Assembly: GCA_963734495.1 (NCBI GenBank)
Contig: CAVTHK010000007.1
Span: 399,978 to 463,977, forward strand
Length of the DNA: 64,000 bases
Reading direction: 5' to 3'
From: an uncultured Spirochaetota bacterium
GTDB lineage: Bacteria; Spirochaetota; Spirochaetia; SZUA-6; CAVTHK01
Within the stretch, counting starts at the first letter, position 1, and each line of letters begins with the position of its first letter. The notes beneath the pieces were generated by a model. The model saw nothing but the letters and a program-made list of their open reading frames with translations, did no database searches and was not told the DNA's origin. Of the stretch, positions 12,839 through 45,416 are shown one piece after another. The translations under genes and the position numbers were made by a program.

Positions 12839-14005
12839 GTGACCCTCAAGTGGATGTCGTCCATCTCGGAGATCGACCGCGGCGCATGGAACGCGCTCGC
12901 TGAGCCGCTCGAGACCCCGCTGCTCGAGTGGGACTGGCTGCGCCAGATGGAGGTCTCGGGCAGCATCGCACCGGAGAGCGGCTGGGTGCCCCTTCACCTG
13001 ACTCTCTGGCGCGACGGCCTGCTCGCGGCCGCCGCCCCGATGTACGTCAAGGGACACAGCTCCGGGGAGTTCGTCTGGGACCATGTCTGGGCCGACGTCG
13101 CGAGTCAACTCGGAGTCCGCTACTACCCCAAGCTGATCGGGATGAGCCCCGCCACGCCCGCGGTCGGCTACCGTTTCCTCGTGGCGCCGGGCGAGGACGA
13201 AGCTCAGGTCACGGCCGCCATGCTCGAGCAGATCGAGCAGCTGTGCGGCAAGAACAACGTGTCGAGCTGCGGCTTCAACTTCGTCGACCCGGCCTGGAAG
13301 GACCTCCTGGAAAAGCTCGGCTACACGGCGTGGGCTCACCAGAGCTACGCATGGGTCAACGAGGGCTTCGTCACGTTCGAAGACTACCTGGCGCGCTTCG
13401 ACAAGAACCAGCGGCGCAACATCAGGCGCGAGCGCGCGAGCGTCGAGGAGGCGGGAGTGACGCTGCGCGCCCTGACGGGGGACGAGATCCCGAGCTCGTA
13501 CTACCCCCTCATGTACCGCTTCTACAGCAACACGAACGCGCAGTTCGGGCCCTGGGCTGCCAAGTTCCTCACGCGCAAGTTCTTCCTGGGCCTGGCCGAG
13601 GGCTTCCGCCACCGCCTCCTGTTCGTCGCCGCCTACGAACGCAAGGGCTCGGAGCCGATCGCGATGTCCTTTTTGATCACCAAGGGCGGGCAGCTCATCG
13701 GCCGCTACTGGGGCGCCTCGAAATTCGTGAGCAACCTCCATTTCGACACCTGTTACTACACGCCGATCCAGTGGGCGATCGAGCAGGGAAAAAGCTTCTT
13801 CGATCCCGGCGCAGGCTCGCCGCACAAGATCCGCAGGGGGTTCCAGGCGGTTGCGAACCACAGCCTCCACCGCTTCTTCGACGACGACATGCGGCGCGTG
13901 ATGGAAAAGCACATCGGCCGCATCAACCGCATGGAGCAGGAGGAGATCGACGGGATGAACTCGGCGCTCCCGTTCGCGCACAAGCCTCCCCAAGCCGGTG
14001 GCTGA
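12839..14005 (+). CDS. FemAB-like GNAT protein (DUF482 family)
   Basis: YVKGHSSGEFVWDHVWA, YYPKL, GRYWG, LHFDTCYY, FDPGAG..HKIRRGF. Confidence 0.9.
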   Translation: MTLKWMSSISEIDRGAWNALAEPLETPLLEWDWLRQMEVSGSIAPESGWVPLHLTLWRDGLLAAAAPMYVKGHSSGEFVWDHVWADVASQLGVRYYPKLIGMSPATPAVGYRFLVAPGEDEAQVTAAMLEQIEQLCGKNNVSSCGFNFVDPAWKDLLEKLGYTAWAHQSYAWVNEGFVTFEDYLARFDKNQRRNIRRERASVEEAGVTLRALTGDEIPSSYYPLMYRFYSNTNAQFGPWAAKFLTRKFFLGLAEGFRHRLLFVAAYERKGSEPIAMSFLITKGGQLIGRYWGASKFVSNLHFDTCYYTPIQWAIEQGKSFFDPGAGSPHKIRRGFQAVANHSLHRFFDDDMRRVMEKHIGRINRMEQEEIDGMNSALPFAHKPPQAGG

Positions 14006-14639
14006 CGTCGGGGGGTCCCCCCGGGGCGCCACGGTCAACGAAGACCTCCTCATCGAGTACGAGCGCGCCCGGGTCCCCGCCTGGCGGATCTACGAGCCGC
14101 GCGAGACCTGCGTCGTGCTCGGCGCCGGCAGGCACGGGAAGGGCGACGTGCTCGAGGAGAACGCGGCGGCCGACGGCGTTCCCGTGCTCTCGCGCAAGGG
14201 CGGCGGCGGCACGGTCGTCCTTTCGCCGGGGATGGTCGTCCTCGCGCTGGCCACCGAGGTCGCCTCGCCATTCCGCAACCGCGAGTACGCGAGCCGGATC
14301 AACGGCTGGATCCGCGAGGCGCTCGCGGGGGCCGGGGTCGACGGAGTCGAGGAGAGAGGCATCTCCGATCTCGCCCTCGGCGACGTCAAGATCGCGGGCA
14401 CGTCGATCTTTCGCCGCCGGCTCATCCTCTTCTACCAGGCGAGCCTCCTCGTGGCCAACGACATCGGCCTCTTCGACCGCTACCTCGCCTACCCTTCGTC
14501 CGTCCCCGACTACCGCGCCGGCCGCGGCCACGACGCGTTCTGCACGACGCTGCGGCGCGCCGGCTTCCCCCTGCGGGTCGGGGACGTGATCGCGGCGCTC
14601 GAGCCCGTCGTGGCCTGCGGCCTGCCCGCGCTGCGGTAG
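13998..14639 (+). CDS. Lipoate-protein ligase (LplA/LipM-like) catalytic domain
   Basis: RKGGGGTV, ISDLA..KIAG, PDYRAGRGH. Confidence 0.8.
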   Translation: MADVGGSPRGATVNEDLLIEYERARVPAWRIYEPRETCVVLGAGRHGKGDVLEENAAADGVPVLSRKGGGGTVVLSPGMVVLALATEVASPFRNREYASRINGWIREALAGAGVDGVEERGISDLALGDVKIAGTSIFRRRLILFYQASLLVANDIGLFDRYLAYPSSVPDYRAGRGHDAFCTTLRRAGFPLRVGDVIAALEPVVACGLPALR

Positions 14640-14653: not shown

Positions 14654-14682
14654 TTGACAGCGTCCGGGGCGGCCGGTAACTT
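14654..14682 (+). promoter_or_regulatory. sigma70-type promoter, leaderless, for the SorE-like operon
   Basis: TTGACA-17 bp-TAACTT, then 6 nt to GTG start. Confidence 0.7.
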
Positions 14683-14688
14683 CAGCGA

Positions 14689-15960
14689 GTGAAGACCACA
14701 GCCCTCCGGCTCTACGGCAAGAACGACCTTCGCCTGGAAACCTTCGACCTGCCTCCGATCGGCGAGCGCGAGATCCTCGCCGACATCGTCTCGGACAGCG
14801 TCTGCATGTCGACGTACAAGGCGACGATCCAGGGCATGGAGCACAAGCGCGTGCCGAAGGATATCGCCGACAAGCCCGTGATCGTGGGCCACGAGTTCTG
14901 CGGCCGCATCATCGAGACGGGACGCGACGTGGACAGCGTCTTCCGCCCGGGGATGAAATACGCCATCCAGCCGGCGCTCAACGCGCCGGGTCGCGAGCTC
15001 GAAGCGCCCGGCTACAGCTACCGTTACATCGGCGGGGACGCGACGCGCATCGTCATCCCCGCGGAGGTGATGGAGCTCGGCTGCCTGCTGCCGTACGACG
15101 GCGAAGGCTACTTCAAGGCCTCGCTCGCGGAACCGGTCTCCTGCGTGATCGGAGCGTTCAAGACCTCCTATCACTTCAAGCAGGGCGAGTACGTGCACCG
15201 GATGGGCATCGTCGAGGGAGGCGCCTGCGCCCTCCTCGCCGCCGCCGGCCCCATGGGCATGCTGGCCATCGACTACGCCGTGCACGGCCCGCGCAGGCCC
15301 CGGCTGCTCGTGGTCACCGACATCGACCAGGGGCGCCTCGACCGCGCAGCCCGCTACTTCACCGTGGCCGACGCTCGCCGCCACGGGGTCGACCTGCACT
15401 ACGTCAACACCAAGGGGCCCGATGCCCCGGCGGCCCTGATGGCGCTGGTCGGAGGCAAGGGCTATGACGATGTGTTCGTCTTCGCCCCCGTGACGCCGGT
15501 GGTCGAGCAGGGCGCAAAGCTGCTGGCCTTCAACGGATGTCTCAACTTTTTCGCGGGCCCGTCCGACAGGAGCTTCGGCGCCGCCATCAACTTTTACGAT
15601 ATCCACTACTCGGGCCACCACTACGCCGGCTCGTCCGGGGGCAACACGGAGGACATGAAGGACGCGCTGCGGCTGATGTCCCAGGGCGCGCTGAACCCGT
15701 CCGTGCTCATCACCCACGTCGGAGGGCTCGATGCCGCGGCCGGGACCATCAAGGAGCTGCCGCACATCCCGGGCGGGAAGAAGCTGATCTACACGCAGAT
15801 CGCCATGCCCCTCGTGGCCCTCGACGACTTCGAGAACCTGGGCAAGCGCGATCCCGTGTTCCGCGAGCTCGCCCGGATCACGGCCGCCGGCGACGGCCTC
15901 TGGTCCGTGCAGGCCGAAGAATACCTGCTCGCCCACGCGAAGCCGATCAGCGTCGGGTGA
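14689..15960 (+). CDS. Zinc-binding dehydrogenase, L-sorbose-1-phosphate reductase (SorE)-like
   Basis: MKTTALRLYGKNDLRLETF, SDSVCMSTYKA, HKRVP, GHEF, GGKKLIY. Confidence 0.85.
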   Translation: MKTTALRLYGKNDLRLETFDLPPIGEREILADIVSDSVCMSTYKATIQGMEHKRVPKDIADKPVIVGHEFCGRIIETGRDVDSVFRPGMKYAIQPALNAPGRELEAPGYSYRYIGGDATRIVIPAEVMELGCLLPYDGEGYFKASLAEPVSCVIGAFKTSYHFKQGEYVHRMGIVEGGACALLAAAGPMGMLAIDYAVHGPRRPRLLVVTDIDQGRLDRAARYFTVADARRHGVDLHYVNTKGPDAPAALMALVGGKGYDDVFVFAPVTPVVEQGAKLLAFNGCLNFFAGPSDRSFGAAINFYDIHYSGHHYAGSSGGNTEDMKDALRLMSQGALNPSVLITHVGGLDAAAGTIKELPHIPGGKKLIYTQIAMPLVALDDFENLGKRDPVFRELARITAAGDGLWSVQAEEYLLAHAKPISVG

Positions 15961-17015: not shown

Positions 17016-17027
17016 GGGGAGAGAGAG

Positions 17028-19967: not shown

Positions 19968-21232
19968 TTACCTCGCCTCCAGCAGCCCACTCACCGCCAG
20001 GTCGTAGTTCGGTTTCGTCCCGTCCCACGCCGGGAAGTTGACATCAGGACCAAGGTCAAGGTTGCGCTCATCAGCCCATTCGCGCATCCAGGCGAGGGCG
20101 TCGTCCACCGGCTCCCGTGGCGGATTCTGCGCCAGCGGTCTGCCGGAGGGCGAGTGGAAGAGCAAGGCGCCATCCGCGCCGGTGCTGATGGTCCAGCCCC
20201 CCTCGTGGACCAGATGATGATGGCGGGTGCAGAGCAGCACGGTATTCTCGAGGCTGGTCTCCCCGCCGTGCAGCCAGTGCTCGATGTGGTGGCCGTGCAG
20301 GAACCTGGTGTGGGTGCACCCGGGAAAGGCGCAGCCGCGGTCCCGCACCATCAAGGCCCGGCGGATGGCGGGCGGAATGCTGCGGGTACGGCGGCCGATG
20401 TTCAGATTCTCCCCGTCCCCACCGACGGCCACCAGACCGCAATCACAGGCCACCCTCCGCAGCGTTTCCGCGGAAACGCGGGTGCCGTCCTCCAGGGTGG
20501 CCGACCACTCGCCGTCGGCGCCGAGCGCCTCCTGCTCGAGATGAACCATGACCTGGAAGCGCTCCCCGCCGCTTCCCGTCACCGGATGGCCGGCCAGGAA
20601 CGACTCGGCGAGCTCGACCGCGCCATCCGCCCGGGATGGCCAGCGCGCTTCCGCGGAAACGCCCGCGGCCGGTCCTCCGCCGCTTCCTTCGCCGGCTCGG
20701 CCTGCACCTCCCGGGCACGCTCGACCGCGCGCAGGACCAGGTCCGCCTCGTCGGGCTCGAGCACCAGCTCCAGCTTGACCATTCCCCCCGGCAGCACCCG
20801 CCGGTATACCGAACGCTCCTCCGGCGCCGGCGCCGTCTCCGAGTCCGTCGCGGCTCGATAGCCCCGGCACAGCCGCTCAAGCTGCGCCCCGGTTGCCACC
20901 AGCGCCAGCTCCAGCAGCTTGCCCTCGTTCTGCGGCGTCGCCACTCGCGTGAGGGCGCGGACCTTGGCGTAGGAAAGGCTGGCCGAGCGGAACGCCTCGT
21001 CTATCGCGGGCAGCGTGCCCAGAGCGCGCGCCACCCGCACCTTCTCCCGCGCGGTGGCCGGGTCCCATCCGAGCCGCCAGGCCAGCCAGTGCGCGCAGGA
21101 AACGGCGCCCTGGTCGCACCAGCCGCCGGCCTCGTCGAACTGCCTGATGCATTCCAGCAGGCGATGAGCGGCCGCATCGAGGTGCGCCGACAGGCTGGCG
21201 ATCTCCTCGCCGAGCTCTTCTGTGGGGGTCAT
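19968..21232 (-). CDS. DUF222 domain HNH endonuclease (13E12-repeat-like); frameshift near 20680
   Basis: [73 protein letters not shown]. Confidence 0.9.
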
Positions 21233-21238
21233 GCTTAT

Positions 21239-21308: not shown

Positions 21309-23766
21309 CTATATGCCGCGCCTGTTGCGCTCGAGCAGGTCGTCCACCGACTGCTTCGTGCTCGGCGTGTGCCCGGGCAGCGGCAGGAGCCGCTCGTGGA
21401 TCGCGTCGACGATCCACTCCTTCTGCGGGAAGAAGGCCTCCTCGAGCTCGGCCGCGGGCGTGATCCAGTTGCGCGAGCCGACGACGACGGGCGGCCCGTC
21501 GAGCCAGTCGAAGGCGGCCTGCGTGACCTGCGAGGCGATCGTGTGGAGGAACGACCCGCGGTCGCAGGCGTCCGAGGAGAGCGCGATGCGCCCGGTCTTG
21601 CGCACCGACTCGAGGATCGGGCCGTAGTCGAGCGGGTTGAGGAAGCGCGCGTCGATGACCTCGGCCGAGACGCCGTAGCGCGCCTCGAGCAGGTCCGCGG
21701 CCTCGAGCGCGCGATAGAGCGTGGCGCCGAGGGTGACGATGGTGACGTCGCTTCCTTCGCGGCGGACGGCGGGCTCGCCTTCGGGCACCTCGTAGTAGCC
21801 CTCGGGCACGGCCTGGAACATCTCGCCGACGTCGTAGAGCCGCTGGCTCTCGAAGAAGACGACGGGGTCCGTGCCGCGCAGCGCCCGGTTGAGCATGCCT
21901 TTCGCGTCGTAGGGCGTGGCCGGGAAGTAGATCTTGAGCCCGGGCACGTGCGCCATCATCGCGCTCCAGTCCTGCGAGTGCTGCGCCCCGTACTTGCTGC
22001 CCACCGAGATGCGCAGCACCATCGGCATCTTGAGCACGCCCGCGGACATCGCCTGCCACTTGGCCATCTGGTTGAAGATCTCGTCGCCCGCGCGGCCGAC
22101 GAAGTCGCAGTACATGAGCTCGGCGACGACGCGGCCCCCGCACAGCGCGTAGCCGACGGCCGAGCCCACGATCGCGCCCTCGGAGATCGGCGTGTTGAAC
22201 AGTCGCTGATACGGCAGGCTCTCGGTGAGGCCGCGGTAGACGGCGAAGGCTCCGCCCCAGTCGCGGTTTTCCTCGCCGAACGCAACCATCGTCGGGTCGA
22301 TCTCGAAGCGGTGCAGCATCGCCTCGAAGAGCGCGTCGCGAAAGGCGAGCATCCGCGCCTTGGGCACGGGCTTTCCGTCGGCGTCGACGGCGAGGCGGGC
22401 CTTTTTCCGATTGGACTCCACGCGCGGGTTGGCGTCGTGGGCGAGGAGCAGCTCCGGCGCTGCGCTCCTCGTGCCGTTCGACGGAGCCGTTGGAGAACAT
22501 CACCTCCCCGATCGCCTCGCTCGACATCGCGATGCGCGGCGAGATCTCGTCGGAGACGGCGCGCTCGACCGCGCGCTTGACGCGGACGCCGCTTCCGCGG
22601 CCAGCGCGTCGGCGTCCGCCGCCGTGAGCACGCCGCCGTCCACCAGGCGCTTGCGGAAAGACGGTATGCAGTCGACCCGGCTCCACAGCTCGACCTCTTC
22701 CTTGGTGCGGTAGCTCGACGCGTCGGACGGGGAGTGGCCGGAGAACCGGTACGTGACCACGTCGAGCAGCACCGGGCCGTCGCCGCGCTGCAGGACCTCG
22801 CGCTTGCGCTCGACGGCGTCCGCGACCGCCATCGGGTCGTAGCCGTCGACGCGCTCGGCGTGCATGGCCGCCTCGTTGACGCCGGCCCCGATGCGGGCGA
22901 GCACGCCGAAGCCCATGGTCTCGCCCGCGGTCTGCCCGCCCATGCCGTAGAAGTTGTTGAAGAAGTTGTAGAGGATCGGGCGGCGCGCCGCCCATCTCCC
23001 TGGGCCACAGCGTGCGGTACTGGTCCATGGCCGCGACCATTATCGCCTCCCAGGTCGGGCCGCAGGCCGAGGAGCCGTCGCCGATGTTGCAGATGACGAT
23101 GCCGGGCCTCCGGTTGATGCGCTTGAACAGCGCCGCGCCCGTGGAGATGTCGGAGGAGCCGCCGACGATCGCGTTGTTGGGCATGCTGCCGAACGGGGCG
23201 AAGAACGCGTGCATCGAGCCGCCGAAACCGCGGTTGAAGCCGGTGTCCCGCGCGAAGATCTCCGCCAGCGTCCCGTAGAGGACGTAGTCGATCCCGAGCT
23301 CGCGCACCCCTCCCGAGGCGCCGGGCTCGACGATGCGCAGGATGCGGCCGCCCATGTAGTCCCGCATAACGGACTGCAGGCGGGCTTCGTCCAGCTTCGC
23401 GACCGCGGAGAGGCACTTGGCGAGGATCTCGCCGTGGCTGCGGTGCGAGCCGAAGACGAGGTCGTCGATGCCCAGCGTCAGGCACTGTCCGACCGCGGCC
23501 GACTCCTGCCCGATCGACAGGTGCGCGGGCCCCTTGTGCTCGTAGCTGATGCCCTGGTAGACGCCCTTGGTCTTGATCTCGTTGAGCGCGGTCTCGAATT
23601 CGCGGATGAGCATCATGTGCCGGAGCACGGTGCGCAGGGAGTCGTCGCCGTACCGGCGGCGCTCCTTCTCGATGTCGGGCTTGTAGGCGTTGAGCGCGAT
23701 CTCGCGGCTCTTGAGCTTTCCTGCCTTGCGGACCTGCGCGGGGTCCACGACGATGGACTTGGGCAT
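21309..23766 (-). CDS. Fused E1 alpha/beta ThDP-dependent 2-oxoacid/acetoin dehydrogenase-like enzyme; several frameshifts in 22400-23000
   Basis: HLSIGQE, HRSHG, GGSMH, IGDG...[16 protein letters not shown]; beta part [20 protein letters not shown]. Confidence 0.9.
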
Positions 23767-23805
23767 GACTCCTCCCTGTGCGGCGGCGCCCGGGCCGCCG
23801 CGTGT

Positions 23806-25006
23806 CTACAGCGCGAGCTGCAGGTCGATCTCCGCGAGCGCCCGGCCGAGCGCCTGCAGGAACCGCGCCGCCGGCGCGCCGTCGACCACCTGGTGGTCGA
23901 TCGTGAGCGAGAGCCCGAGGCTGTCGACGAACTCGATCTCGCCGTGCGCGTCGCGCACCGGGCGCAGCGTGACGGCCCCGACACCGAGGATCGCGACCTG
24001 CGGCGGGTTCAATACCGGGGTGAATGTCTCCACCCCGAGGCTCCCCAGATTGGTGACGGTGAAGGTCCCCCCGGCGAGATCGTCCGGGCTCACGCTGCCC
24101 TTGACGCAGGCCTCGGCGAGGCGCCGCGCCTCTCGAGACAGGGCGGCCAGACCGAGGGCCTGCGCGTCGCGGATCACCGGCACCATCAGGCCGCGCTCGG
24201 TGTCCACGGCGAAGCCGAGGTGGACCGCCGCGTGGCGCGTGACGGCGCCGCCGGCGAACGTCGCGTTCAGGTCGGGGGTGCGAAGCAGCACGCGCGTGAC
24301 GGCGAACAGCACGAGGTCGTTGATCGTCACGCCGCGGAGGCCGTACTCGTCCGGGCTGTCCTTGAAGCGGCGGCGCAGGTCGAGCAGACGCCGCGCGTCG
24401 GCCGACGCGTTCAGCGTGAAGTGCGCGCTGCCCTGGACCGCGGCGAGCATGCGCTCGGCGATCAGCTTGCGCACGCCGCGCAGGGGTGCCGCGGCAGCGG
24501 GTGCCGCGGCCGCCGGGGCGGCAGGAGCTGTCGCGACGGCCAGCACGTCCCGCACGATGACCCGGCCGCCCGGGCCGGAGCCTGCGAGAGCCGCGGGGTC
24601 GACGCCGCGCTCGGATGCGAGGCGCCGCGCGCGGGGCGACACGCGCAGCCGGCCCGGGCGCGCGCCTGCAGGCGGCGCCCCGGCGGCGCGCCGCCGCTTT
24701 CGGCGCGGGCGCGGGGGCCGCGGCTTTCGGCGCCGCGCCCGCGGGCCGCAGCGCCGCTGCCGACTCCCCGGGCGCGCCGATCGCCGCGATGTTCGTGAGC
24801 ACGGGCACGTCGGCGCCCTCGGCGAAGAAGCATTCGAGCAGCGTCCCCGCGGCGGGGGCCGGCACCTCGAAGACCGCCTTGTCGGTCTCGACCTCGCACA
24901 GCACGTCGCCCGCGGCGACCACGGAGCCCGGCTGCTTCTTCCACGCGAGGATCACGCAGCTCTCCACTGTGTTGCCCTGGCGGGGCATTACGACTGCCGT
25001 AGCCAA
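23806..25006 (-). CDS. Dihydrolipoamide acyltransferase (E2); frameshift in the linker near 24650-24700
   Basis: Lipoyl EVETDKA, E3-binding [16 protein letters not shown], catalytic [11 protein letters not shown] start after GGAGG. Confidence 0.9.
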
Positions 25007-25040
25007 CTGTGCCTCCAGCAGGCTTGGGTCGCCTTCTTCC

Positions 25041-25097
25041 AATGACTTTGTCATTGACTTACGCACCAACACTAATCGGCTTTCACTTGGCGGTCAA
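25041..25097 (-). promoter_or_regulatory. E2-E1 promoter with downstream inverted repeat AATGAC-TTT-GTCATT (25041-25055)
   Basis: Minus strand TTGACC-17 bp-TAGTGT; AT-rich island in a GC-rich background. Confidence 0.55.
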
Positions 25098-25172
25098 GGG
25101 GCGGGTCAGGCGGTCACTTGCCGCCTCGGCTGCATGGGCCGCACTCCCGCCGGCCGCCTGCACGGCCCCCCG

Positions 25173-25930
25173 TCAAACCACCTCCACCTCGACACCCGCC
25201 TCCGCGAGCCGGCGGCGGCCTTCTTCATCCATGCCCGTGTCCGTGATCAGGGTCCCGACCGAGCTGATGGGGGTGATGGTCACGAAGCCCGGTCCTTCCC
25301 CACTTCGAGGAGTCGGCGACCAGGATCGTCCGGTCCGCCCTTTCGACCATTCGCTTGAGGACCGCGGCGGCCTCCGGGAAAGTAGCTCGAAAGGCCGTGC
25401 TCGATGGTGAAGCCGTCGGTGCCCACGAAGGCGAGGCGCACGTGGAAGCTGTCGAGGCCCCCGAGGGCCATCGGGCCCACGAAGGCCTCGGTTTCCGCGC
25501 GAAAGGTGCCGCCGAGCACCACGAGCTGGATCGCCGGATTGGCGCGCGCGTACGGGATGACGAGGGCCGAGTTGGTGACGATCCGCACGTCGCGCCGGCC
25601 CACCAGGTAGCGGGCGACCAGGGCGGTCGTCGTGCCCGCCTCGATCATGATCGTGTCCCCGTCGGTGACGAGGGCGGCGGCGCGCCTGGCGATGCGGTGC
25701 TTTTCGTCGGCCCGGTGCTTCTGCCGTTTCAGGATTTCCGGGTGGAAGGCGGGCGAAGCGCCCCCGCGCGTGCGGAGGATCAGGCCGAGGGTCTCGAGGC
25801 GGGCGAGATCGGCCCGGACGGTCACGGCCGACACCCTCGTCGCCTCGCTCATGCGGCTCACGGTGGCGCCGGGGTCGTCGGCGAGCAGGTCAAGAAGCGT
25901 TCTTTCCCTTTCGGAAAGGTTTTCCAGCAT
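25173..25930 (-). CDS. DeoR/GlpR transcriptional regulator; frameshifted C-terminus
   Basis: VSAVTVRADLARLE..RTRGGA HTH, EKHRIA, EAGTTT, VTNS; ends ..ITDTG..AGVEVEVV*. Confidence 0.9.
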
Positions 25931-26046
25931 GATGCGAACAGTTTCGATGCTGATGCGGGCGCTGTCAACCCCCGATTTCTGCCGTCCCCCCCGCCCCGCG
26001 CCACGGCTCGACCGGGCCCGACCGGGGCGGGCCGATTTGACTGGAT

Positions 26047-26196: not shown

Positions 26197-27526
26197 ATGA
26201 ACGGAAGAGCACTCGGGTGTTCTGATCGTGCTCCTGCTGTGCTGCCCGATGATGGCGTTCGCTTCCGGGCAAACGCCGGCGGCGAGCGCAAAGGTCGTCG
26301 AGATCCGCTACATGAGCCCGTGGGTCGAGGCCGACCCGAATGGGCCGGTTTTCGGAGCCATGGTCCGGAAGTTCAACGCCGAGCACCCCAACATCAAGGT
26401 GGTGCCCGACCTGCTGCCGTCAGCGAACCTGCGCACCAAGATCACGGTCGAGATGGCGGCCAACAACCCGCCGCACGCGGCCTGGTCGATCCTGAGCTAC
26501 GCCCGCGAGTTCACCAGGGCGGACAAGCTCATGGACTGGGCGCCGGTCTATGCCGATCCGAAGCACAAAGAGTACAAGGAGTGGTTCGACGAGAAGGTGC
26601 TCAAGACGCCGACCTACATGGGCATCATCATGATGTCGCCCTTCGAGGCACACGTCGACGGGCTCTTCTACAATCAGGCGGCCTTCGACAAGCTGGGCCT
26701 GACCGTGCCCGCCACCGGTGACGATCTCATCGCGGTCGCGAGGAAGAGCAAGGCCCAGGGCATCGCCGCGAGCGTGACAGGCGGCAAGACGATGCGCTTC
26801 GCGTGGCTGGCTTCGATCCTCCTGGCCCGCACCTCCGGGCTCGCAAACGCCAACGCCCTCGCCCTCGGCGATGCGATGGACAAGTGGAACGACCCGAAGT
26901 ACGGCTTCCCCCAGGCGATGGCGAAGTTCAAGCAGTTCGTCGACGCAGGCGGCTATCCCGACGGCGTGCTCGGCATGGATCAGAACGAGTCGTACCAGGT
27001 CTTCGGCAAGGGCAAGGCCCTCACCTACTACGAGGGCCAGTGGGTGCCGGCCGCCCTCAGGACGGCAGGCGGCGATGAGTTCTACAAGAACGTGCACCGG
27101 GCCAACTTCCCGAAGTTCACCGACATGCCCAACGGCGACCCCGACGTCCTCACCGGCGGCATCATCGCGGGCCAGATCCTGGCCAAGCAGTACCCCGAGG
27201 CCGAGCGACAGGCAGCAATCCTGTTCTGCAAAACGGTGTCGAGCCCGGAGCTCATGGTGCGCAACATGGAGCTGGGCAACAACATCTACGCCGGCAAGTC
27301 GGCATGGGACGACTCCAAGTCGTTCCCGGTCTGGAAGGAGACGGTCGCGGCGTTCCGCGCGGCACCGCGCTTTATCCCGTCGATGGACGCCTTTGCTCCT
27401 CCGCAGGTCGACCTCGCCATCAAGCAGACGGCCATGCCCGGCATCATCACCGGACAGTTCACGGTGGACCAGGCGGTCGCCGAGGTGCAGAAGGCGGCGC
27501 TCGAGTACCTGAAGACCATCAAGTAG
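26197..27526 (+). CDS. Carbohydrate ABC transporter substrate-binding protein (indel in the signal peptide region)
   Basis: Spirochaete-style signal ..AFASGQ, KFNAEHPNIKV, LFYN..FDKLGL.VP; GGAGG before ATG 26197. Confidence 0.85.
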
Positions 27527-27541
27527 ATCTCGCTGCGATCG

Positions 27542-27573
27542 AGGGGCGCGGGGTGCGAAAGCCTCGCGCCCCT
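27542..27573 (+). terminator. GC-rich stem-loop after the substrate-binding protein gene (mRNA stabiliser or partial terminator)
   Basis: AGGGGCGCGGGG..GAAA..CCTCGCGCCCCT. Confidence 0.55.
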
Positions 27574-27599
27574 TCATTCTCCCTCAAAGAGGTGCGACG

Positions 27600-28469
27600 G
27601 TGGGCGACACGGTCGGCGCAAGCCCTGCAGCGGCCCAGCTCCGCGTATCGAGCGCGTGGGCAAAGGGAGCCATCTACGCGGTCCTGATCTTCTTTGCGGT
27701 CGTGGTCCTGCTGCCGCTGCTCTGGCTGCTGTCGTCGTCGCTCAAGACGCTCGAAGACCTCTCGCAGAACGTCTGGGGCCTTCCCAAGAAGATCGAGCTC
27801 AAGAACTACGTCTTCGCCTGGAACCAGAGCCACATGGGGGTCTACCTCCGCAACAGCTTCGTCGCGACGCTGGTGGCGATCCTCGTGAGCACGACCGCCT
27901 CGGCGACGATGGCGCACGCGCTGGCCCGCTTCCGGTTCCGGATCAACCGTCTCGTCTACTACCTCGTGATCGCGGGGATGATGATCCCGATCCACTCGGC
28001 CGTGATCCCGCTCTACCTGATCGCGCTCAAGTGGAAGATGCAGAACAACCTGATCGCTCTGGGCCTCATCTACGCGGCCTTCAGGATACCGGTCTCGGTG
28101 TTCATCCTCGAGTCCTTCATGCTGACGATCCCCAAGGAGCTCGAGGAGTGCGCGATCATCGACGGCTGCGGCTACTGGAAGATCTTCTGGAAGATCATCG
28201 CCCCGCTCGCTCGCGACGGTGTGGTCACCATCATGGTGCTGACAGCCCAGGCGACCTGGAACGAGCTGCTCGTGGCGATGCTGATGCTCAGCAAGCCGAT
28301 GCTCAAGACTCTCCCCATCGGCGTGCTGGGCTTTCTCACCGAGTACGTCAGCTCGTACCAGCTGCTTTGCGCCGGCCTCATCCTGGCGCTGATCCCCAAC
28401 CTGCTGTTCTACGCCCTCATGCAGGAGAAGATCGAGAAAGGGATGACCGTGGGCGCGGTCAAGGGGTAG
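27600..28469 (+). CDS. Carbohydrate ABC permease (MalG-like)
   Basis: YLRNS, IPKELEECAIIDG, WNELL, GMTVGAVKG. Confidence 0.95.
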   Translation: MGDTVGASPAAAQLRVSSAWAKGAIYAVLIFFAVVVLLPLLWLLSSSLKTLEDLSQNVWGLPKKIELKNYVFAWNQSHMGVYLRNSFVATLVAILVSTTASATMAHALARFRFRINRLVYYLVIAGMMIPIHSAVIPLYLIALKWKMQNNLIALGLIYAAFRIPVSVFILESFMLTIPKELEECAIIDGCGYWKIFWKIIAPLARDGVVTIMVLTAQATWNELLVAMLMLSKPMLKTLPIGVLGFLTEYVSSYQLLCAGLILALIPNLLFYALMQEKIEKGMTVGAVKG

Positions 28470-28473
28470 GCCC

Positions 28474-29362
28474 GTGGAGATGAACCCCAAGGTCAGGCGC
28501 AATCTCGCGATCACGCTCTTCCTGCTGCCCGGCGGGCTGGTCTACGTGCTGCTGGTGCTCAATCCGCTGGTGCAGGCCTTCATCCTGGCGACCTACCGCT
28601 GGAAGACGCTGAGCACGCGGGTCTACGTCGGACTCGACAACTTCGTGACCGTCTTCAGCGACAACCTCTTCTGGATGTCGATGAAGAACAGCCTCATCTT
28701 CATGGTGGGCACGACGCTGCTGCAGGTCGCGCTGGGGTTCGGCCTCGGCTATTTCCTGTACCTGCAGCTCAAGGGCTACCGCTTCTTCAAGACGGTCTAT
28801 TTCATTCCCGCGGTCCTCGCGACCGTGGCCGTCGGGTTCGTCTGGGGTTACATCTACAGCCCGGCCTTCGGGCTGCTCGAAGCCGGCCATGGAGTTCCTG
28901 GGCCTCGGGGCGAAGTACAAGTCGCCGCTTGCCGAGCCGGGCATGGCCCTGCTCGCGCTCATCATCGCCCAGGTCTGGCACTTCTTCGGCATCCAGGTGA
29001 TGATGTTCAACGCAGGCTTCATGAACATGCCGCAGGACGTCATCGAGATGGCCTCCATCGACGGCGCCTCGGGCTGGAGGATGATCTGGCACATGGTGCT
29101 GCCGCTCGCCTGGGAGATCACCAAGACCGTCATCATCCTGCAGATGATCGGGGCGCTGCGCTCGTTCGACCTCATCTTCGTGATGACGCAGGGCGGGCCC
29201 AATCACGCCACCGAAGTGCTGCCGATGCACATGTTCGTCCACGCGTTCCAGAACTTCAACATCGGCCTCGGCGCGGTCGTGGCCGTGGTGATCTTTATCC
29301 TCGCCATGAGCTTGACGATGTGCATGCGCGCGCTCATGCAGCGCGAGGCGCTGCAGTATTGA
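28474..29362 (+). CDS. Carbohydrate ABC permease (MalF-like); frameshift near 28880
   Basis: YVGLDNF, FKTVYFIP, EMASIDGA, FDLIFVMTQGGP. Confidence 0.9.
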
Positions 29363-29488: not shown

Positions 29489-31264
29489 CTACCCGTACAG
29501 CGGCCCAAACGCAGCGCACGCCCGGTAGTCCGCGCCCACCGGGTCCATCGCGCCGAACGCGGTCCAGGCGCTCGGCCGGAAGATCCGGTCGTCGGGCACG
29601 TTGTGCATGCAGACCGGGATGCGCAGCATCGAGGCCAGCGTGATCAGGTCGGCGCCGAAGTGGCCGTAGCCGAAGGCGCCGTGGTTGGCGCCCCAGTTGC
29701 CCATCACCGTGTAGACGTCGTTGAAGGGGGCGCTGCCGGTGAGGCGCGGCACGAACCACGTCGTCGGCCAGGTCGGGTCGGTGCGCTCGGTGAGCGCCTT
29801 GTCCGCGTCGGCGGGCAGAGCCGCCGTCACGCCCTCTGCGATCTGCAGCGCCGGACCGAGCCCCTTGATCAGGTTGATGCGCGCCATCGTCACGGGCATG
29901 CCGCCCTTGGTGTGGTACTCGGTCGAGAAGCCGCCGCCCCTGAAGTAGCCGAGCGACGCGGGGCAGAAGGTCGTGGCCGCGAGGCACTTCTTGACCTCGT
30001 CCTCCGTGATCTCCCAGAACGGCTTCATCACCGGCTTGCCGCCCCGGGTCTGCTCGCCGTTGCCGTCGAGGGCCGCCGAGCCTGAGTTGATGAGGTGGAG
30101 GAAGCCGCCGGCCGCGTCGCCCGTCGGCGCCTTTCCGGTCACGCGCTTGACGGCGTCCGGGCTCCAGTAGGTGCGCACGTCGGCGAACACCTGGGCGGTG
30201 TTGGTGAGCAGGTGCGACAGCAGCATCGCGATGCCGTTGAGGCAGTCGTTCTCGGTGGCGCAGATGAACGGCTCGCGGATGCCGTTCCAGTCGAACGAGC
30301 TGTTGAGCATCGTCTCGAGGAAGTCGCCGTTGGGGTAGAAGTCGGTCCACTGCCTCTGCCCCTGGAAGCCGCTCGCGATCGCGTTGTGGCCGTTGGCCTC
30401 CTCGCCGAAGCCGATGTCTTTCAGCTTCGGGTTGCCGATCATCAGGTCACGGGCGATGATCGCCATCTTGGTGACGAACTCCCAGTCGCGCGCCTTCTTC
30501 TCATCGCTGAGCTTTTGCGCGTTGTTGTCGCGGCCTGCCTTGCAGTTCTTCTTGACCCAGGCGAGCGCTTTCTCGTACTCGGCCTTGTCGTAGATCCCCT
30601 GCTCCATGCGCCGGATGAACTCGGTCGCGTCGATCATCTCGTAGCGCATGCCGAGGTGGCCTTCGAGAAAGGCCGGGTCTACGATCGAGCCTGCGATGCC
30701 CATCGAGACCCCGCCCATGGCCAGGTAGCTCTTGCCCCTCATGGCGGCGACCGCGAGGCCCGACCGCACGAACTGGAGGATCTTCGTCTTGACGTCGTCG
30801 GGGATCGTGGTGTCGTTGAGGTCCTGGACGTCGCGTCCGTAGATGCCGAAGGCCGGCAGCCCCTTCTGGTTGTGGCCCGCGAGCACCGCGGCGAGGTAAA
30901 CGGCGCCCGGCCGCTCCGTGCCGTTGAAGCCCCAGATCGCCTTGGGGATGAGCGGGTCCATGTCCATGGTCTCGGCCCCGTAGCACCAGCAGGGCGTCAC
31001 GGTCAGCGACACGCCCACGCCCTCGCGGGCGAACCTGGCCGCGCACCGCGCCGCCTCGGCCACGCCCCCGATGCAGCCGTCGGCGATCACGCACTCGACC
31101 TTCTCGCCGCTCGGGTGCCGCAGGCTCTCCGAGATCAGCTTCGCCGCGTTCTTCGCCATGTTCATCGTCACGTTCTCGAGGCTCTCGCGCACGCCGCGCT
31201 CGCGGCCGTCGATCGTCGGCCGGATCCCCACCTTCGGGAGCGAGCCTGCCAGCCTGTATGCCAT
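29489..31264 (-). CDS. fucI: L-fucose (D-arabinose) isomerase
   Basis: [68 protein letters not shown]. Confidence 0.97.
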
Positions 31265-31472
31265 GGTGCCCTCCAGACGTCTGTTGATCGCCCGCCGTGC
31301 GGGCGGGCGGAACGGCATTCTACACGAGAAGGCACCGGGCGCCAGTTCGCCCTGCCCCGCGCCCGGGCGGGGCCCGGCCTCCGCGCCGTCACGGACTCGT
31401 CACGGCCGGCGCGTAGTCTGTCTGCGTGCGGCGGAGAACCGTCCGCTGCGCGGGAACGAGGGAGGTCGGCAT

Positions 31473-41327: not shown

Positions 41328-41751
41328 ATGGCTCGCGTTCTTGTGGTCGATGACGATGACGCGACGCGCCTTTCGCTGCGCCGGGCGCTCGAGCAGGCGG
41401 GTCACGAAGTCTCCGAGGCGCGGGACGGCGCTGCGGCGCTCACGCTCGCTCAGGCCGTGCGACATCGTCGTCATGGATATCGTCATGCCGGTCAAGGGCG
41501 GCCTCGAGACGCTCATCGAGCTGCGAGGCGGACGCCCCCGGATCGGGGTGATCCTGATGAGCGGCACCGCCCAGACCGCGGCCGGGCCCTTTCAGCACCT
41601 GGCCGAGCGGCTCGGCGTCGAGCACGTCTTTGCCAAGCCCGTTCCTCTCGACCGCCTCCTCGCCGCGGTGGCGGAGCTCACGTCGCACCTGAGCCGGACC
41701 CTATGGGGCGCCCCCCGCGCGGCGAGCCTGCGCTCGAACTCCCTGCGGTAG
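41328..41751 (+). CDS. Single-domain response regulator; frameshift near 41455, true stop possibly near 41690
   Basis: MARVLVVDDD, DIVVMDIVMPVKGG, MSG, KP. Confidence 0.85.
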
Positions 41752-43215
41752 CCGGCGATGCCGGGAAGCTCGCGTGGAGGCACCGGTGCGAGCTCGATCT
41801 CGAAGAGATCCTTGACCTCCGCGGGGTCGAGCTTCTCCATGGCCAGCTTTCCCGTGATCGCGGCGCCGAAGGCGGTGGCCTCCTTCATGCTCGTGAGAGA
41901 CACGCGCGAGCGGGGCGCGAGAGCGGCGAGCAGGGCGTTGTAGGCCTCGTTCCGGCGGAAGCCGCCCTCGACGTAGAGCGTCTCGCCCGCCCGCATGCCC
42001 GCCCTGCGCAGCGCCACTTCGGTCTGGAACGCGAGCGACAGGTTGAGGACGGGCACGGCCGTGGCCGGGTCGCGGAAGAACGCGGGGACGGTCTCACCCT
42101 TCGCCACGGCCTCGAACGGCGTCACCTTGTCCCCCTCCACGATGCGGGCGCGGGAGCCCGTGAACTGCCCGGTCCCCGGGAATATCTCGGGCAGGATGAA
42201 CAGCCGGCGCTCGCGCAGGATCCGGCCATAGACCTCGGCGTCGAAGGCCGAGCTGCCCTCGCTGCCCGCGGCCTTGCGGAAGAGCGCCATGTACGTGTCG
42301 TACTCGAGCCCTCCGACGAAGATCGCGGTCTTGACCGGCCTCGAGAACGCGTCGAGGTTGTAGAAGACGACCTTGCCGATGTCCTCCTCCTCGAACCGCA
42401 CCTCACGCGAAGGCTTCATGATCACGCACCAGGTCCCGGTCGAGTTGAGAACGAAGTCTTCCTGCGCCTTGATGAGGTACGGGAGGAGCGAAGCGTTGGA
42501 ATCGTGGATGCCCATCGTCACGATCGTCGACGGGTCCAGCCCCGTGCGCCGCGCGACCTCGGGTGTCACGGTGCCCAGCACGTCCCAGGAGCGCCCGACC
42601 TGCGCGGGGAGCTTGTCGATGATGCCGAGGTCCCGGGCGACGCTCGACCAGCGGCCGGCCGCGAAGTCCCAGAGGTACGAATGGCAGCCCACGTAGGTCG
42701 CCTCGGCCCCGACGCGTCCCGTGAGCAGGAACCCGAAATACTGCGGGTAGTTGAGGATGTGACGCACCCGCGGCGAAGTCCTGCGGGAAGCGGGTCTTCA
42801 GAAAGTAGACCCCCTTGGCCACGTTGAGCAGCGAGCTGAAACGGGGAGTCGCCGTGACGCGCTGCAGGGCGTCGCTCGCGCCGAACGCGCGGTAGAACTC
42901 CTCGTTGAACTCCTCGCCCGGGTCGGTCGTGTAGGAGATGACTCCCGGCACGGCCTTCCCGCCGGCGTCGACGGCGGCGAACGTGGCCCCGTGAGTGCAG
43001 ACCGACACGACGCCGATCGGGTGCCTGCGCGCGTGCGCCGCCAGCTGCTCGAAGAACCAGGCGTCGATCGCGTCGATGTCGTCCAGATCCACCCCATCGC
43101 GGCGCACGAGCGGGAACTCCGCGTAGACCGACTCGAGAAGGTTGAGCCGCGAATCGAACACCAGCAGCTTCTTGTTGGTCTTGCCCACGTCGAAGACAGC
43201 TATGCAGTATTCCAT
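41592..43215 (-). CDS. FGGY-family carbohydrate kinase (rhamnulo/fuculokinase-like); frameshift near 42765, true stop possibly near 41701
   Basis: AVFDVGKTNKK, THGAT, GIHDSNASL, STGTW, EGGF. Confidence 0.85.
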
Positions 43216-43261
43216 ATCGCCCCCTCACCCCGCGGGCATTCGCGCCGCCGCCGCCGCGGCG

Positions 43262-45243
43262 CTACCCGAGCATCACCTGGCCGCCGGTCACCGGGATCGC
43301 CTGGCCGGTCTCGTAGCGCTGCTCGACCGCGTACAGCAGCGCGCGGAACACGTCGGCGACCCTGCAGCCGCGGCCCATGGGAACCAGCGATTCGTAGTGG
43401 CGCTTGACGTCTTCGACCGTGCGGGCGCCCGGGACCTTGCCCGCGGCCAGGTACTGCACGAAGAGGCCGTTCTTCGGGTCGGCCCAGAGGGGGCCTTCGA
43501 AAAAGTTGCCCGGGCAGATGGCGTTCACCTTGATCCCGTCCTCGATGAGCTCGAGGGCAAAGCTCTGCGTGAGCCCGATGCCGCCGAACTTCCCGCCCGC
43601 ATAGGCAAAGTTCCTGCGGCTTCCCACGAGGCCGCTCTTGGAGTTGATCTGCACGATGTCGGCCGACCAGTCGGCGGCGAAGCGATGCTGGATCTTCATG
43701 ATCCTCGCGGCCGCGCGGGCGCACAGGTAGTAGCCGGTGTAGTTGACGCGCGTGACGGCCTCGAACGTCGCGGGGTCGGTGGTCTCGATGTCCCCCGCCC
43801 GGAGAATCCCAGCGTTGCTCACGAGCAGGTCGAGGCCGCCGTACTCGAGCGCGGCCGCGAGCACCATCGACCAGGCGGACGCCTCACTGGTGACGTCGGC
43901 CGGCACGGCGAGCGCCCGGCCGGCGCCGTGCGCCGCGGTGATCTCCGCGGCCCGCGCGCGCGCCTGCGCCTCGTTGACGTCGGCCACGACGACGTGCGCC
44001 CCCTCGGCGGCGAGGCTCAGCGCGAGCCCGCCCGCCAAAGCCCTGCCCGCCGCCCGTGACCACCGCGATGCGCTCGGCAAGACGCGGGCCGCCGCCCGCG
44101 CCGCGCCCTTCGGCCACCTTCTTGCGGAAGCGTTCGACCTCCCAGCCGCCGATGAACCGCACGAGCCGTTCCGGCATCGGCTTGCTGCCGCCGAAGCTCT
44201 CGGCGTAGCAGGCGATCCGCAGCGCGTCCCGGAACAGCGCCCACGTCGTGTCCGCGTCCTTCTTCGCGGGTCCCCAGGAGTACAGGCCCAGCCCCTGCAC
44301 CGCCACCACGCGCGGGCCTGCGCCCCAGCGCTCCCGGTAGGCCGCCACCGCGCGCTCGCATGCCTCGGTTTGCGCCTCGAGGTCGTCGTGCGCCGGCCAC
44401 CCACAGCGGCTTCCGCCCGCAATAGACCATGTGGTCGGGCGTGAACGGTTCGTCGAACACCCGGAACGCGGCCTCGTCGGCGATCCGCAGCCGGACCTCC
44501 GCGCTCGTCCGGAAGACGACGATCGAGCTCTCGCCGCCCTTGAGCAGCATGCGGAGCGCGGGCGCAAGGCGGCCGGCGCGCTCGCGGTCGAACGCCGCTT
44601 CGCTCTCGTCCGGCTCGCGGCCGACCCTGCCGCGCATCGCCTTCACGACGCGCTCGGTGAGCCTGCGGACCGTCCCGGCATCGGGGGCAGCCACGAACAG
44701 GCCGTGGTTCTCGATGAGCACGAGCGACGGGGTGCGGCCGTGCTTCGCGCGCCAGGCCTCCATGAGCTCGCGCATCCTCGCCGCGAGCACGTACCCTGGC
44801 TCGATCGCCTCCACCCAGAGCACGTCGTCGCCCAGCAGCTCGCGCGCCGCCCGCTCCCCGTCGCGTCCGCAGGTGAGCCCGTTGACGAGCGCGGGGTGAG
44901 TGTGCACGACGAGAGGCTCGGGAAAGAGGTCATGGAGAAGGGTCTCTACGCTCGGCCTGAGAGAGGCGCCGGGGACGCGCGCGGCGTTCAGGTCGGCCAG
45001 CACCTCGGCCTCCCTCGTCTCCTCGCGGTCCGGGTAGCGCCGCCGCCACAGGACCGCGAGCTTTTCGCGGTCCATCTCGACGAACGTCGCGCCGGATGCC
45101 TCGGCCAGGCTCGTGCCCGAGGCCTTGACGTGGAGAACGCCGCCGATTTTGAGCGATGTGTTGCCACCGCCCGCGAGCACGTAGTCCGGGTCGGCTCCGT
45201 AGAAACGCGAGATCTCGTACAGTTGAGCCAGTGCCTGGTCCAT
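43262..45243 (-). CDS. Bifunctional class II aldolase / SDR (sorbitol-6-phosphate dehydrogenase-like); frameshifts near 44400 and 44040
   Basis: [65 protein letters not shown]. Confidence 0.85.
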
Positions 45244-45416
45244 GCGACGTCCTCCGACCGGGGCGCGCGGCGCGGGCGGCGCCGCCTGTTTGCCGGCGCC
45301 ATCTTAGCCGATGGCGCCGCAGATGGAAAGCCGGGAACATGCGGGAGATGGCGACAGCGCCGGGCATCCCCCTCAGCCAGTGGCGATCCGCTCCCCGACC
45401 GGGTATAATCGCCGCC

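Follow-up and report, generated by a model that had tools for sequence, protein, structure and literature searches.

Lipoamide-dependent dehydrogenase complexes are well known from textbooks, with only a few substrates on record, and in one of them, the acetoin dehydrogenase, the AcoAB component cleaves a methyl ketol instead of decarboxylating. Here we examine a complex of this type encoded in a 64,000-nucleotide stretch of DNA (hereafter, the window) from an uncultured Spirochaetota bacterium (assembly GCA_963734495.1, contig CAVTHK010000007.1, here C7), in which genes for a DeoR-family regulator, an E2 acyltransferase and a fused alpha-beta E1 dependent on thiamine diphosphate (ThDP) follow one another on the minus strand from position 25933 down to 21309. 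The most similar gene row described belongs to Caldicellulosiruptor bescii and, in the part of the report that deals with it, consists of FucA, RhaD1, a hypothetical gene, SrlD, SorE, LipB, LipA, Athe_0702-0704, RhaR2 (a DeoR-type regulator) and RhaA, with Athe_0702 assigned as E2 (acoC-like), Athe_0703 as the lipoamide dehydrogenase, E3, and Athe_0704 as E1 (PMC8579813). According to the same part of that report, the nearest characterised relative of Athe_0704 is an acetoin dehydrogenase E1 (41% to AcoA of Alcaligenes eutrophus), the zinc-dependent alcohol dehydrogenase (Zn-ADH) of the row is 54% identical to sorbose-1-phosphate reductase of Klebsiella, and the complex was predicted in 2021, from genome context only, to handle L-lactaldehyde in the last step of rhamnose and fucose catabolism (PMC8579813). 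In C. saccharolyticus, Csac_0874-0872 (putative E1, E2 and E3) were designated simply a keto-acid dehydrogenase, and the section on these genes states that there is no enzymatic evidence for pyruvate dehydrogenase (PDH) in Caldicellulosiruptor (PMC3561251). A further system, RhaEW, is presented in the pertinent portion of its source as a characterised bifunctional enzyme, an L-rhamnulose-1-phosphate aldolase fused to a short-chain dehydrogenase/reductase (SDR) that oxidises L-lactaldehyde, and lactate dehydrogenase genes are placed there in some RhaR regulons (PMC3870299). No assay of the complex formed by the E1 family considered here was found in the open literature, subscription journals not being covered.

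Like the C. bescii cluster, the window combines an E2 gene with a single E1 gene, adjoined by a DeoR gene and a deoxyhexose isomerase, and also holds SrlD-like, SorE-like and LipB genes; a hypothetical gene, Athe_0697, lies alongside in C. bescii. The two differ in that the C. bescii operon includes E3 and its isomerase is RhaA, whereas the window has no E3 in the operon, has FucI as the isomerase, and has its partner genes spread over 40 kb. The gene content of the RhaR2 type (E2, single E1, DeoR, isomerase, SrlD-like, SorE-like and LipB genes) is therefore present in the window, and such sets also occur in related loci L041, L043, L099, L106 and L109. A preliminary description of the window had proposed a sugar-cleaving dehydrogenase of an undescribed pathway. 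The complex is indeed an unusual, sugar-linked one, but a rhamnose/fucose role for the like-ordered C. bescii cluster was already predicted in the section cited above (PMC8579813), so that the idea is not wholly undescribed. We interpret the locus as a DeoR-repressed, lipoate-dependent dehydrogenase of the 2-oxoacid/acetoin type that belongs to an L-fucose/L-rhamnose gene set and would act on a methyl-bearing C3 unit, and we assign this reading a probability of about one half.

The G+C content is 0.70-0.72 across the 20-26 kb part of the window, where spurious open frames are numerous, and genes were placed by third-position G+C together with homology. The DeoR gene (25176..25933; HTH_DeoR and DeoRC domains in Pfam) is read across three frames: tblastn with two orthologous DeoR proteins yields three consecutive high-scoring segment pairs, in frames -1, -2 and -3, over residues 3-253. 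The E2 gene (23809..25054, stop codon 23806-23808) occupies two frames and matches the Pfam domains Biotin_lipoyl (54.5 bits), E3_binding (46.3 bits) and 2-oxoacid_dh (230.1 bits); its translation runs from a lipoyl domain with ETDKA through an Ala/Pro linker and an E3-binding domain to a catalytic domain with DHQVVDG, the two short motifs being what we take to be the lipoyl-lysine and catalytic motifs of E2. Both domains and motifs are those of E2 in 2-oxoacid/acetoin dehydrogenase complexes. The E1 gene starts at an ATG at 23766 (21312..23766, stop codon 21309-21311) and, read through, encodes about 818 aa, as placed by Pfam and by tblastn with an intact 820-aa orthologue. Its alpha part (E1_dh) continues into the beta part (Transket_pyr, 112.9 bits; Transketolase_C, 99.4 bits) without an intervening stop, and since the window E1 is broken in its frames, the fused state is read from orthologues: in the intact orthologue, E1_dh, Transket_pyr and Transketolase_C score 144.8, 109 and 99 bits. 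The family is an E1 of the alpha-beta type, with a ThDP alpha domain (E1_dh and GDG..NN, at a longer spacing) followed by Transket_pyr and Transketolase_C. The coordinates, gene order and common strand given in the preliminary description are correct, but it had overlooked six frameshifts, which split each of the three genes between reading frames.

The company kept by this E1 family was surveyed by scanning one genome of each species for a pattern, in which at least 598 of the 600 listed stretches encode E1 relatives. The best 80 of these (at least 598) relatives are 62-77% identical and span many phyla, with record titles naming Spirochaetota, Chloroflexota, Poribacteria, Verrucomicrobiota, Kiritimatiellales, Propionibacteriaceae/Tessaracoccus, Atribacteria, Calditrichota, Bacteroidetes and Anaeromyxobacter. 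Together with 12 loci of the window's own order they make up the 92 loci considered below, whose open reading frames (ORFs) were clustered along with those of the window and named by Pfam and NCBIfam; the term well-flanked refers to the 47 of them that have 5 kb or more of sequence to either side. E2 is found in 80 of the 92 loci and in 43 of the 47 well-flanked ones, followed by DeoR (52 and 26, respectively), E3 (47 and 24), a PHP-domain protein of about 450 aa usually encoded directly after E1 (26 and 10), an SrlD-like SDR (23 and 12), a SorE-like Zn-ADH (16 and 8), FGGY kinases (15 and 10), class II aldolase (7 and 4), FucU (6 and 4), FucI (3 and 2) and RhaA (3 and 1), and a mannitol-dehydrogenase-family gene is present in 3 of the 92. 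At least one sugar partner occurs in 20 of the 47 well-flanked loci. The PHP protein gave no functional lead past its PHP domain, which was recognised by Pfam at E values of 0.2 to 2e-6 in all five of the proteins examined.

Several arrangements recur. The order DeoR-E2-E3-E1-PHP-SDR-FGGY-ZnADH is found in L053, L056, L086, L091 and L097, and the same gene set with Zn-ADH ahead of FGGY in L059 and, next to an AraC-RhaA-aldolase unit, in L109; L099 and L106 read RhaA-aldolase II-DeoR-E2-E3-E1-PHP, L041 and L043 read FucI-(FucU)-DeoR-E2-E3-E1, and FucI stands immediately upstream of DeoR-E2-E3-E1 in L041, L043 and L049. The corresponding window genes are true members of the recurrent set. The SorE-like Zn-ADH (14680..15957, plus strand, 426 aa; Pfam) has homologues of 53-62% identity in 16 of the 92 loci; the FGGY kinase (41676..43224, minus strand, one frameshift; Pfam and homology) is 40-58% identical to the in-operon kinase of six related loci; and the SDR domain of a gene in which a class II aldolase is fused to an SrlD-like SDR (43265..45246, minus strand, two frameshifts; Pfam and NCBIfam) shares 52-62% identity with the operon SDR of 22 loci and 46% with that of a further locus. 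FucI (29492..31399, minus strand) passes the cut-offs of both NF008220 (1054.6 bits against 775) and TIGR01089 (1019.6 bits against 850), and an RbsD/FucU-type mutarotase (Pfam, 110.7 bits) is encoded at 54314..54799 on the plus strand. The SorE-like enzyme, the aldolase-SDR and the FGGY kinase had been named as partners of the complex in the preliminary description, and they are indeed recurrent ones, although in the window they are only scattered. Most of the operons that bring them together elsewhere have no aldolase. The recurrent markers FucI, RhaA, FucU and class II aldolase point to 6-deoxyhexoses and hence to a putative methyl-bearing intermediate.

The fusion of SDR to class II aldolase, which the window shares with L102, L111 and L112, resembles RhaEW, which likewise occurs in deoxyhexose loci under DeoR-type RhaR regulators. 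On the RhaD_aldol-ADH model for RhaEW (cut-off 567.75), however, the window fusion reaches 148.8 bits, over its SDR part, and the full-length L102 protein 287.8 bits, whereas the window SDR scores higher, at 223.9 bits (cut-off 307), on the sorbitol-6-phosphate dehydrogenase model, the model on which the SDR scores best (212-224 bits).

Within the window's order, represented by 41 genomes, FucI is present in 22, and 21 of those 22 also carry E1, while seven have E1 without FucI. The remaining 12 (families f3 and f5) have neither, and these 12 are also devoid of SDR, PHP and Zn-ADH. The aldolase-SDR fusion is confined to the E1-bearing families f1, f2, f4, f6 and f8; PHP occurs in f2, f6 and f8, often adjoining the fusion, and Zn-ADH in f1, f4 and f6, adjoining the fusion in f6. 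Families f2 and f8 combine the complex with the fusion and PHP, with no Zn-ADH found in them at E<=1e-80. As a separate observation, in four loci of family f7 (L021, L022, L023 and L032) E2-E3-E1 is followed by PALP (cysteine-synthase-like) and JAB-domain genes, with a ThiS-ThiF-rhodanese fusion nearby in L021, a context of the sulfur-carrier type with no sugar genes.

The E1 family itself is well set apart from its known relatives. When the PDH equivalog models of NCBIfam were applied (TIGR03182, TIGR03181, NF006667 and NF008854), the intact orthologue remained below every cut-off, with 172.8 bits (cut-off 393.85) and 110.6 bits (cut-off 411.35) on the E1-alpha models and 242.5 bits (cut-off 321) and 222.4 bits (cut-off 454) on the E1-beta models. 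In 15 of 15 family members, and likewise in the window and a Rhizobium variant, 69-73 residues separate HRSHG from GGSMH, as opposed to 27 in each of the six reference E1-alphas holding both motifs; the spacing between GDG and NN is 37-38 residues in 14 of 15 family members versus 26 in seven references, the reference E1s including the assembly's own PDH. In agreement with the preliminary description, which had remarked on a long insertion and an extended GDG..NN segment in the window protein, the 42-residue insert and the 12-residue longer ThDP motif are family-wide traits. The best sequence matches in the PDB are the E1-beta chains of a Thermus 2-oxoacid dehydrogenase and of PDH, with the alpha part matching weakly.

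In a quick maximum-likelihood tree of 26 beta domains, which contains long branches and in which the AcoB and PdhB references are named by gene context (for AcoB, acetoin reductase plus butanediol dehydrogenase in Acinetobacter and a sigma-54 regulator in C. difficile), the 16 family rows form one group with a Shimodaira-Hasegawa-like approximate likelihood ratio (SH-aLRT) support of 96, and the family plus the Rhizobium plasmid variant form one clade with a support of 99 on a stem of 2.99. In this rough tree the clade lies apart from both context-defined AcoB rows, from the PdhB rows and from other fused E1s. Tree and model scores thus uphold the earlier supposition that the protein would not group with PDH or AcoAB, and E1 appears to be neither an ordinary PDH nor an ordinary AcoAB. 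Branching within the family disregards taxonomy, one genome of the window's order pairing with an Anaeromyxobacter metagenome-assembled genome (MAG) and another with an Atribacteria MAG, which suggests repeated transfer of the operon between phyla.

Comparison with individual systems gives the same picture. AcoA, AcoB, AcoC and AcoL likewise supply a ThDP-dependent E1, a lipoyl-bearing E2 and an E3, but the E1 described here is fused, carries the insert and the longer GDG..NN segment, and belongs to a separate clade; the regulator of the acetoin system is of the sigma-54 AcoR type and that of the window is DeoR, and no acetoin or butanediol dehydrogenase context was seen. The heterotetramer-type PDH of the assembly itself (on contig C13) has the same Pfam domains as the window E1, with about 39% identity in the beta part, but its E1-alpha passes the equivalog cut-off while the window family fails all of them. 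Other fused E1s, named 'alpha-ketoacid dehydrogenase subunit alpha/beta' (for example one on plasmid pR1CP1 of Rhodococcus opacus, and one on contig C1 of the assembly), also combine alpha and beta in one chain followed by E2, but show 29-33% full-length identity, no insert and a GDG..NN spacing of 26, and they form their own clade in the beta tree, joining the stem below the window's family.

The Rhizobium variant is encoded on a plasmid of Rhizobium sp. (L113; NZ_CP087976.1, 189779-216171) and is 52.8% identical. Its annotation divides it into two genes that overlap. Instead of a normal E2, the next genes encode a free lipoyl protein of 78 aa and an alpha/beta hydrolase, with pieces of an FGGY kinase after them; the upstream side holds a gene of the mannitol dehydrogenase family as well as a sugar-binding regulator and an ABC transporter.

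As the preliminary description had noted, no E3 is encoded in the window: a search of the assembly with TIGR01350 gave no match on C7. It had also recommended looking for E3 elsewhere, and two lipoamide dehydrogenase genes above the model's cut-off were indeed found, on C16 (528.6 bits) and C13 (521.8 bits), so that E3 is available within the bin. Since, as shown below, the bin holds two organisms, either gene may be the E3 partner of C7, and the DUF222 element that C13 and C7 have in common is a modest hint that these two contigs come from one organism. In 47 of the 92 related loci E3 sits between E2 and E1 (456 bits in one example, cut-off 408.8), and the window E2 retains its E3-binding domain. 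The E1 family is part of a full three-component complex, for which the window's order mostly has E3 elsewhere. The assembly also contains a canonical PDH, in the order E1a-E1b-E2-E3 on C13 (E1-alpha 449.3 bits, cut-off 393.85), and a pyruvate:ferredoxin oxidoreductase (PFOR; 1868.9 bits, cut-off 911.35), and no AceE-type E1 in the assembly was found. With PDH and PFOR already present, the DeoR-linked complex is an extra one.

Under the interpretation that we favour, FucI would isomerise fucose, the FGGY kinase would phosphorylate, and the aldolase part of the aldolase-SDR fusion would split the product into dihydroxyacetone phosphate and a methyl-bearing C3 unit. E1 would bind the C3 unit on ThDP, either as L-lactaldehyde, in keeping with the published prediction, or, after oxidation by the SDR, as methylglyoxal, and would hand an acyl group to the lipoyl-E2, which would form an acyl-CoA (acetyl- or lactoyl-CoA); E3, supplied from elsewhere in the genome, would re-oxidise the lipoamide with NAD+. 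The operon would be released by DeoR upon binding of a ketose-1-phosphate.

A number of observations weigh against this interpretation. To our knowledge, there is no characterised precedent for an E1 acting on an aldehyde, and the Caldicellulosiruptor genes were matched by name and order rather than by sequence. The anticipated clustering with sugar genes, which holds for the SorE-like, SrlD-like and FGGY genes in the numbers given above, fails in 27 of the 47 well-flanked loci, which have no sugar partner and include 10 of the 11 such loci of the window's own order; f7, moreover, has E2-E3-E1 with no aldolase-SDR, PHP or Zn-ADH, and with cysteine-synthase-like and JAB genes downstream. It should be kept in mind that kindred genomes are not independent, and that the association with FucI within the order represents a few evolutionary events rather than 41. 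An aldolase accompanies the complex in 3 of the 26 PHP-bearing and 4 of the 23 SDR-bearing loci, which fits an aldolase-free route better. Finally, six frameshifts in 4.6 kb, versus at least nine in the other 59 kb of the window, are a local excess that could mean real decay.

The loci lacking sugar partners and the non-sugar context in f7 would be expected if the complex were an additional pyruvate, acetoin or branched-chain 2-oxoacid dehydrogenase, its sugar neighbours being a coincidence of genome regions rich in carbohydrate genes, or the complex merely extending lactate or pyruvate to acetyl-CoA. The best-scoring models are, after all, PDH E1 models, and the lactate dehydrogenase genes reported for some RhaR regulons, in the portion of the source that treats them, make an extension to pyruvate plausible (PMC3870299). 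The scores, however, fall far below every PDH cut-off, no reference E1 examined has the insert or the longer ThDP motif, the family has a long stem branch of its own in the beta tree, the assembly already possesses PDH and PFOR, and a DeoR regulator accompanies the complex in 52 of the 92 loci; in the section on Caldicellulosiruptor cited above, moreover, enzymatic evidence for PDH in that genus is stated to be lacking (PMC3561251). On these grounds an ordinary dehydrogenase seems quite improbable.

With aldolases this scarce, the carbon-carbon bond could be cleaved by E1 itself. A shift of the carbonyl group by SorE and then SrlD is the established route of L-sorbose breakdown, and an aldolase-free deoxyhexose pathway may be modelled on it: the kinase would yield L-fuculose- or L-rhamnulose-1-phosphate, the SorE-like Zn-ADH would reduce C2, the SrlD-like SDR would oxidise C5, and the resulting 1-deoxy-ketohexose 6-phosphate, a methyl ketol like acetoin or 1-deoxy-D-xylulose 5-phosphate, would be split by E1 into acetyl-lipoamide (then acetyl-CoA) and a tetrose 4-phosphate. 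Tight same-strand operons with DeoR, E2, E3, E1, PHP, SDR, FGGY and Zn-ADH and with no aldolase (L053, L056, L086, L091, L097, L059 and L080) are what such a pathway predicts, and the top scores of the SDR on the sorbitol-6-phosphate dehydrogenase model agree with it, as do, in the part of the C. bescii report cited above, the likeness of the Zn-ADH to sorbose-1-phosphate reductase and that of Athe_0704 to an acetoin dehydrogenase E1 (PMC8579813). Against it stand families f2 and f8, in which complex, aldolase-SDR and PHP coexist with no detectable Zn-ADH at the threshold given, the fusion of SDR to a class II aldolase in the window and three other loci, and the RhaA-aldolase pairs that L099, L106 and L109 have within or next to the operon. 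There is also no known fate for the tetrose phosphate, which by stereochemistry derived by hand would be D-threose-4-phosphate and not erythrose-4-phosphate. We consider the aldolase-free route, the main alternative to our interpretation, unlikely, although it would be of interest in its own right, since it would be an unrecognised route for L-fucose and L-rhamnose, would gain acetyl-CoA and NADH rather than lactaldehyde and propanediol and would represent the first known lipoamide complex acting on a sugar phosphate.

The same aldolase-free operons could also accommodate the scheme of the preliminary description, a transketolase-like oxidative cleavage of an ordinary ketose or ketose phosphate to glycolyl-CoA and an aldose, as could the Rhizobium plasmid variant with its mannitol-dehydrogenase-family gene, FGGY pieces and sugar ABC transporter, and the mannitol-dehydrogenase-family genes seen in three loci. 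The specific markers that recur, FucI, RhaA and FucU, are nevertheless those of 6-deoxy sugars and imply a methyl, not a hydroxymethyl, acyl group. No gene for handling glycolyl-CoA was seen in the neighbourhoods examined, and a literature search linking glycolyl-CoA with lipoamide found no mention of glycolyl-CoA among the matches listed. A glycolyl-CoA product therefore finds no support, and we regard it as highly improbable.

Whichever substrate applies, it would change the view of how the methyl end of deoxyhexoses is metabolised, notably in fermenters, where propanediol is the assumed fate, and the PHP, SorE-like and SrlD-like genes linked to the complex would thereby gain a function as well. 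The E1 family is very widespread (in addition to Spirochaetota, it is present in Chloroflexota, Verrucomicrobiota, Poribacteria, Actinomycetota, Atribacterota and others), strongly conserved and structurally marked, and cultured carriers exist in Caldicellulosiruptor, Treponema primitia and Tessaracoccus. It is thus a good target for enzymology, with the earlier interpretation redirected to fucose and rhamnose.

The window copy of the operon is an error-laden or decaying member of this family. Its six single-base frameshifts within 4.6 kb are distributed as two in DeoR, one in E2 and three in E1, and the third-position G+C signal switches frame within each of the three genes. Judging by tblastn, DeoR departs from the frame of its orthologues near 25372 and 25289, the single shift of E2 lies in the Ala/Pro linker between 24764 and 24629, and three changes of frame separate E1 from the intact 820-aa orthologue. 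At the base level, in comparison with the same-genus genome G001, the E1 differences amount to +1 near 22978, a net -1 at 22573-22591 and a net +1 at 22459-22461, the first of these shifts falling inside the window's own GDG..NN segment. Orthologues are intact: 25 of 40 relatives in the window's order match the E1 beta part at 67-87% identity, and in 23 of those 25 E1 lies in stop-free open frames of 814-1036 aa. In G001, the first 556 residues of E1, the only part available, lie inside one 653-aa open frame, and the aldolase-SDR is a single 701-aa frame.

All six breaks are of +/-1, the correct frames have no in-frame stop, third-position G+C remains steady at 0.9-1.0, and identity to orthologues is 60-81% for the broken genes. 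One letter at 22981 is omitted in public metagenome contigs, mostly from relatives (one contig of run X1 and three of run X2); this is the only site bridged by contigs differing in length, and nothing clear emerged from short metagenome contigs for the sites near 22590, near 22460 and in the E2 linker. Among public sequencing runs, none contained half of the sampled window words, the best share being 0.17. Beyond the DeoR-E2-E1 operon, the other 59 kb of the window contain at least nine further shifts plus one in-frame stop, in genes for a DUF4954 protein (1290-3526, with the in-frame stop at 2885-2887), NagB-like/GFO (18159-19954), the second permease (28447-29359), a histidine kinase (38542-39949), FGGY plus aldolase-SDR (41676-45246) and a MoxR-like ATPase (51899-52990), with the DUF222 gene also counted among the frameshifted ones.

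The state of the assembly as a whole, which is 83% complete in 18 contigs, is also informative. It contains two rpoB/rpoC loci whose alignable DNA pieces share only 65-74% identity, one locus being intact (C16:21064-28772) and the other shattered (C3:43503-50324), with rpoB in at least six pieces and rpoC in two with an in-frame TAG. Given these two divergent loci, the bin mixes two organisms, and some of its contigs are riddled with indels, an essential gene included; per-contig ORF statistics did not separate good contigs from bad ones. The six shifts are most likely assembly errors, and the organism therefore probably has working DeoR, E2 and E1 genes. The practical lesson for the window is that of an assembly with many single-base shifts in a bin of two organisms.

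The local excess of shifts noted above is what would be seen if the operon, the FGGY kinase and the aldolase-SDR were real and recent pseudogenes, with the fucose branch being lost in this organism, a reading that concerns the state of the genes and not their function. FGGY and aldolase-SDR, together 3.6 kb, add three more shifts, while the window's FucI, Zn-ADH and binding-protein genes are intact, as are several of its genes of 1.3-2.2 kb; a mobile DUF222 gene is inserted beside E1, and PFOR (3.5 kb) and the rpoB/rpoC genes of C16 are intact within the same assembly. Against decay, however, the shifts are all of +/-1, the proper frames are free of nonsense codons, third-position G+C is undiminished and orthologue identity stands at 60-81%; the essential rpoB on C3 is equally shattered, which points to error-prone contigs, and 83% completeness for 18 contigs suits long contigs ridden with indels. 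We view genuine decay as somewhat improbable.

Other genes around the operon are largely as previously outlined. Back-to-back with DeoR, in agreement with the preliminary description, lies a sugar ABC transporter on the plus strand (26201..29359), made up of an SBP_bac_1 binding protein (26201-27523) and two BPD_transp_1 permeases, the second of them frameshifted (Pfam). The sugar enzymes and the lipoate gene said to surround the operon are also in the window: in addition to Zn-ADH, FucI, FGGY, aldolase-SDR and FucU, a gene with an LplA/LipB-type catalytic domain (Pfam LplA-B_cat, 71.4 bits) at 13959..14636 on the plus strand would encode a lipoyl(octanoyl) transferase, and although it had no NCBIfam match at 1e-10, its size presumably suits LipB. 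Immediately downstream of E1, a DUF222 (HNH-type) gene (19971..21235, minus strand; Pfam), itself frameshifted, separates the E1 operon from the convergent Zn-ADH operon; this interval spans 1360 bases here versus 45 in G001, and copies of the gene at 85-89% identity occur on contigs C13, C2 and C9. It is a mobile insertion that lies outside the system.

The convergent operon-like row on the plus strand (14680-19954) comprises Zn-ADH, an epimerase-family gene, a dihydrodipicolinate synthase (DHDPS)-family gene and the NagB-like/GFO-IDH-MocA gene, and is syntenic in G001. At 1e-15, the 92 loci yielded no homologue of the window's epimerase-like, DHDPS-like and NagB/GFO genes (15972-19954), nor of its binding protein, LipB, FucU and Ldh_2 genes; the synteny with G001 apart, these genes would on this account fall outside the recurrent set. 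At the far end of the window, a phage-integrase-family gene (59863-60594) is followed by a fall in G+C to 0.575 over 62001-64000, which may mark the edge of an integrated element.

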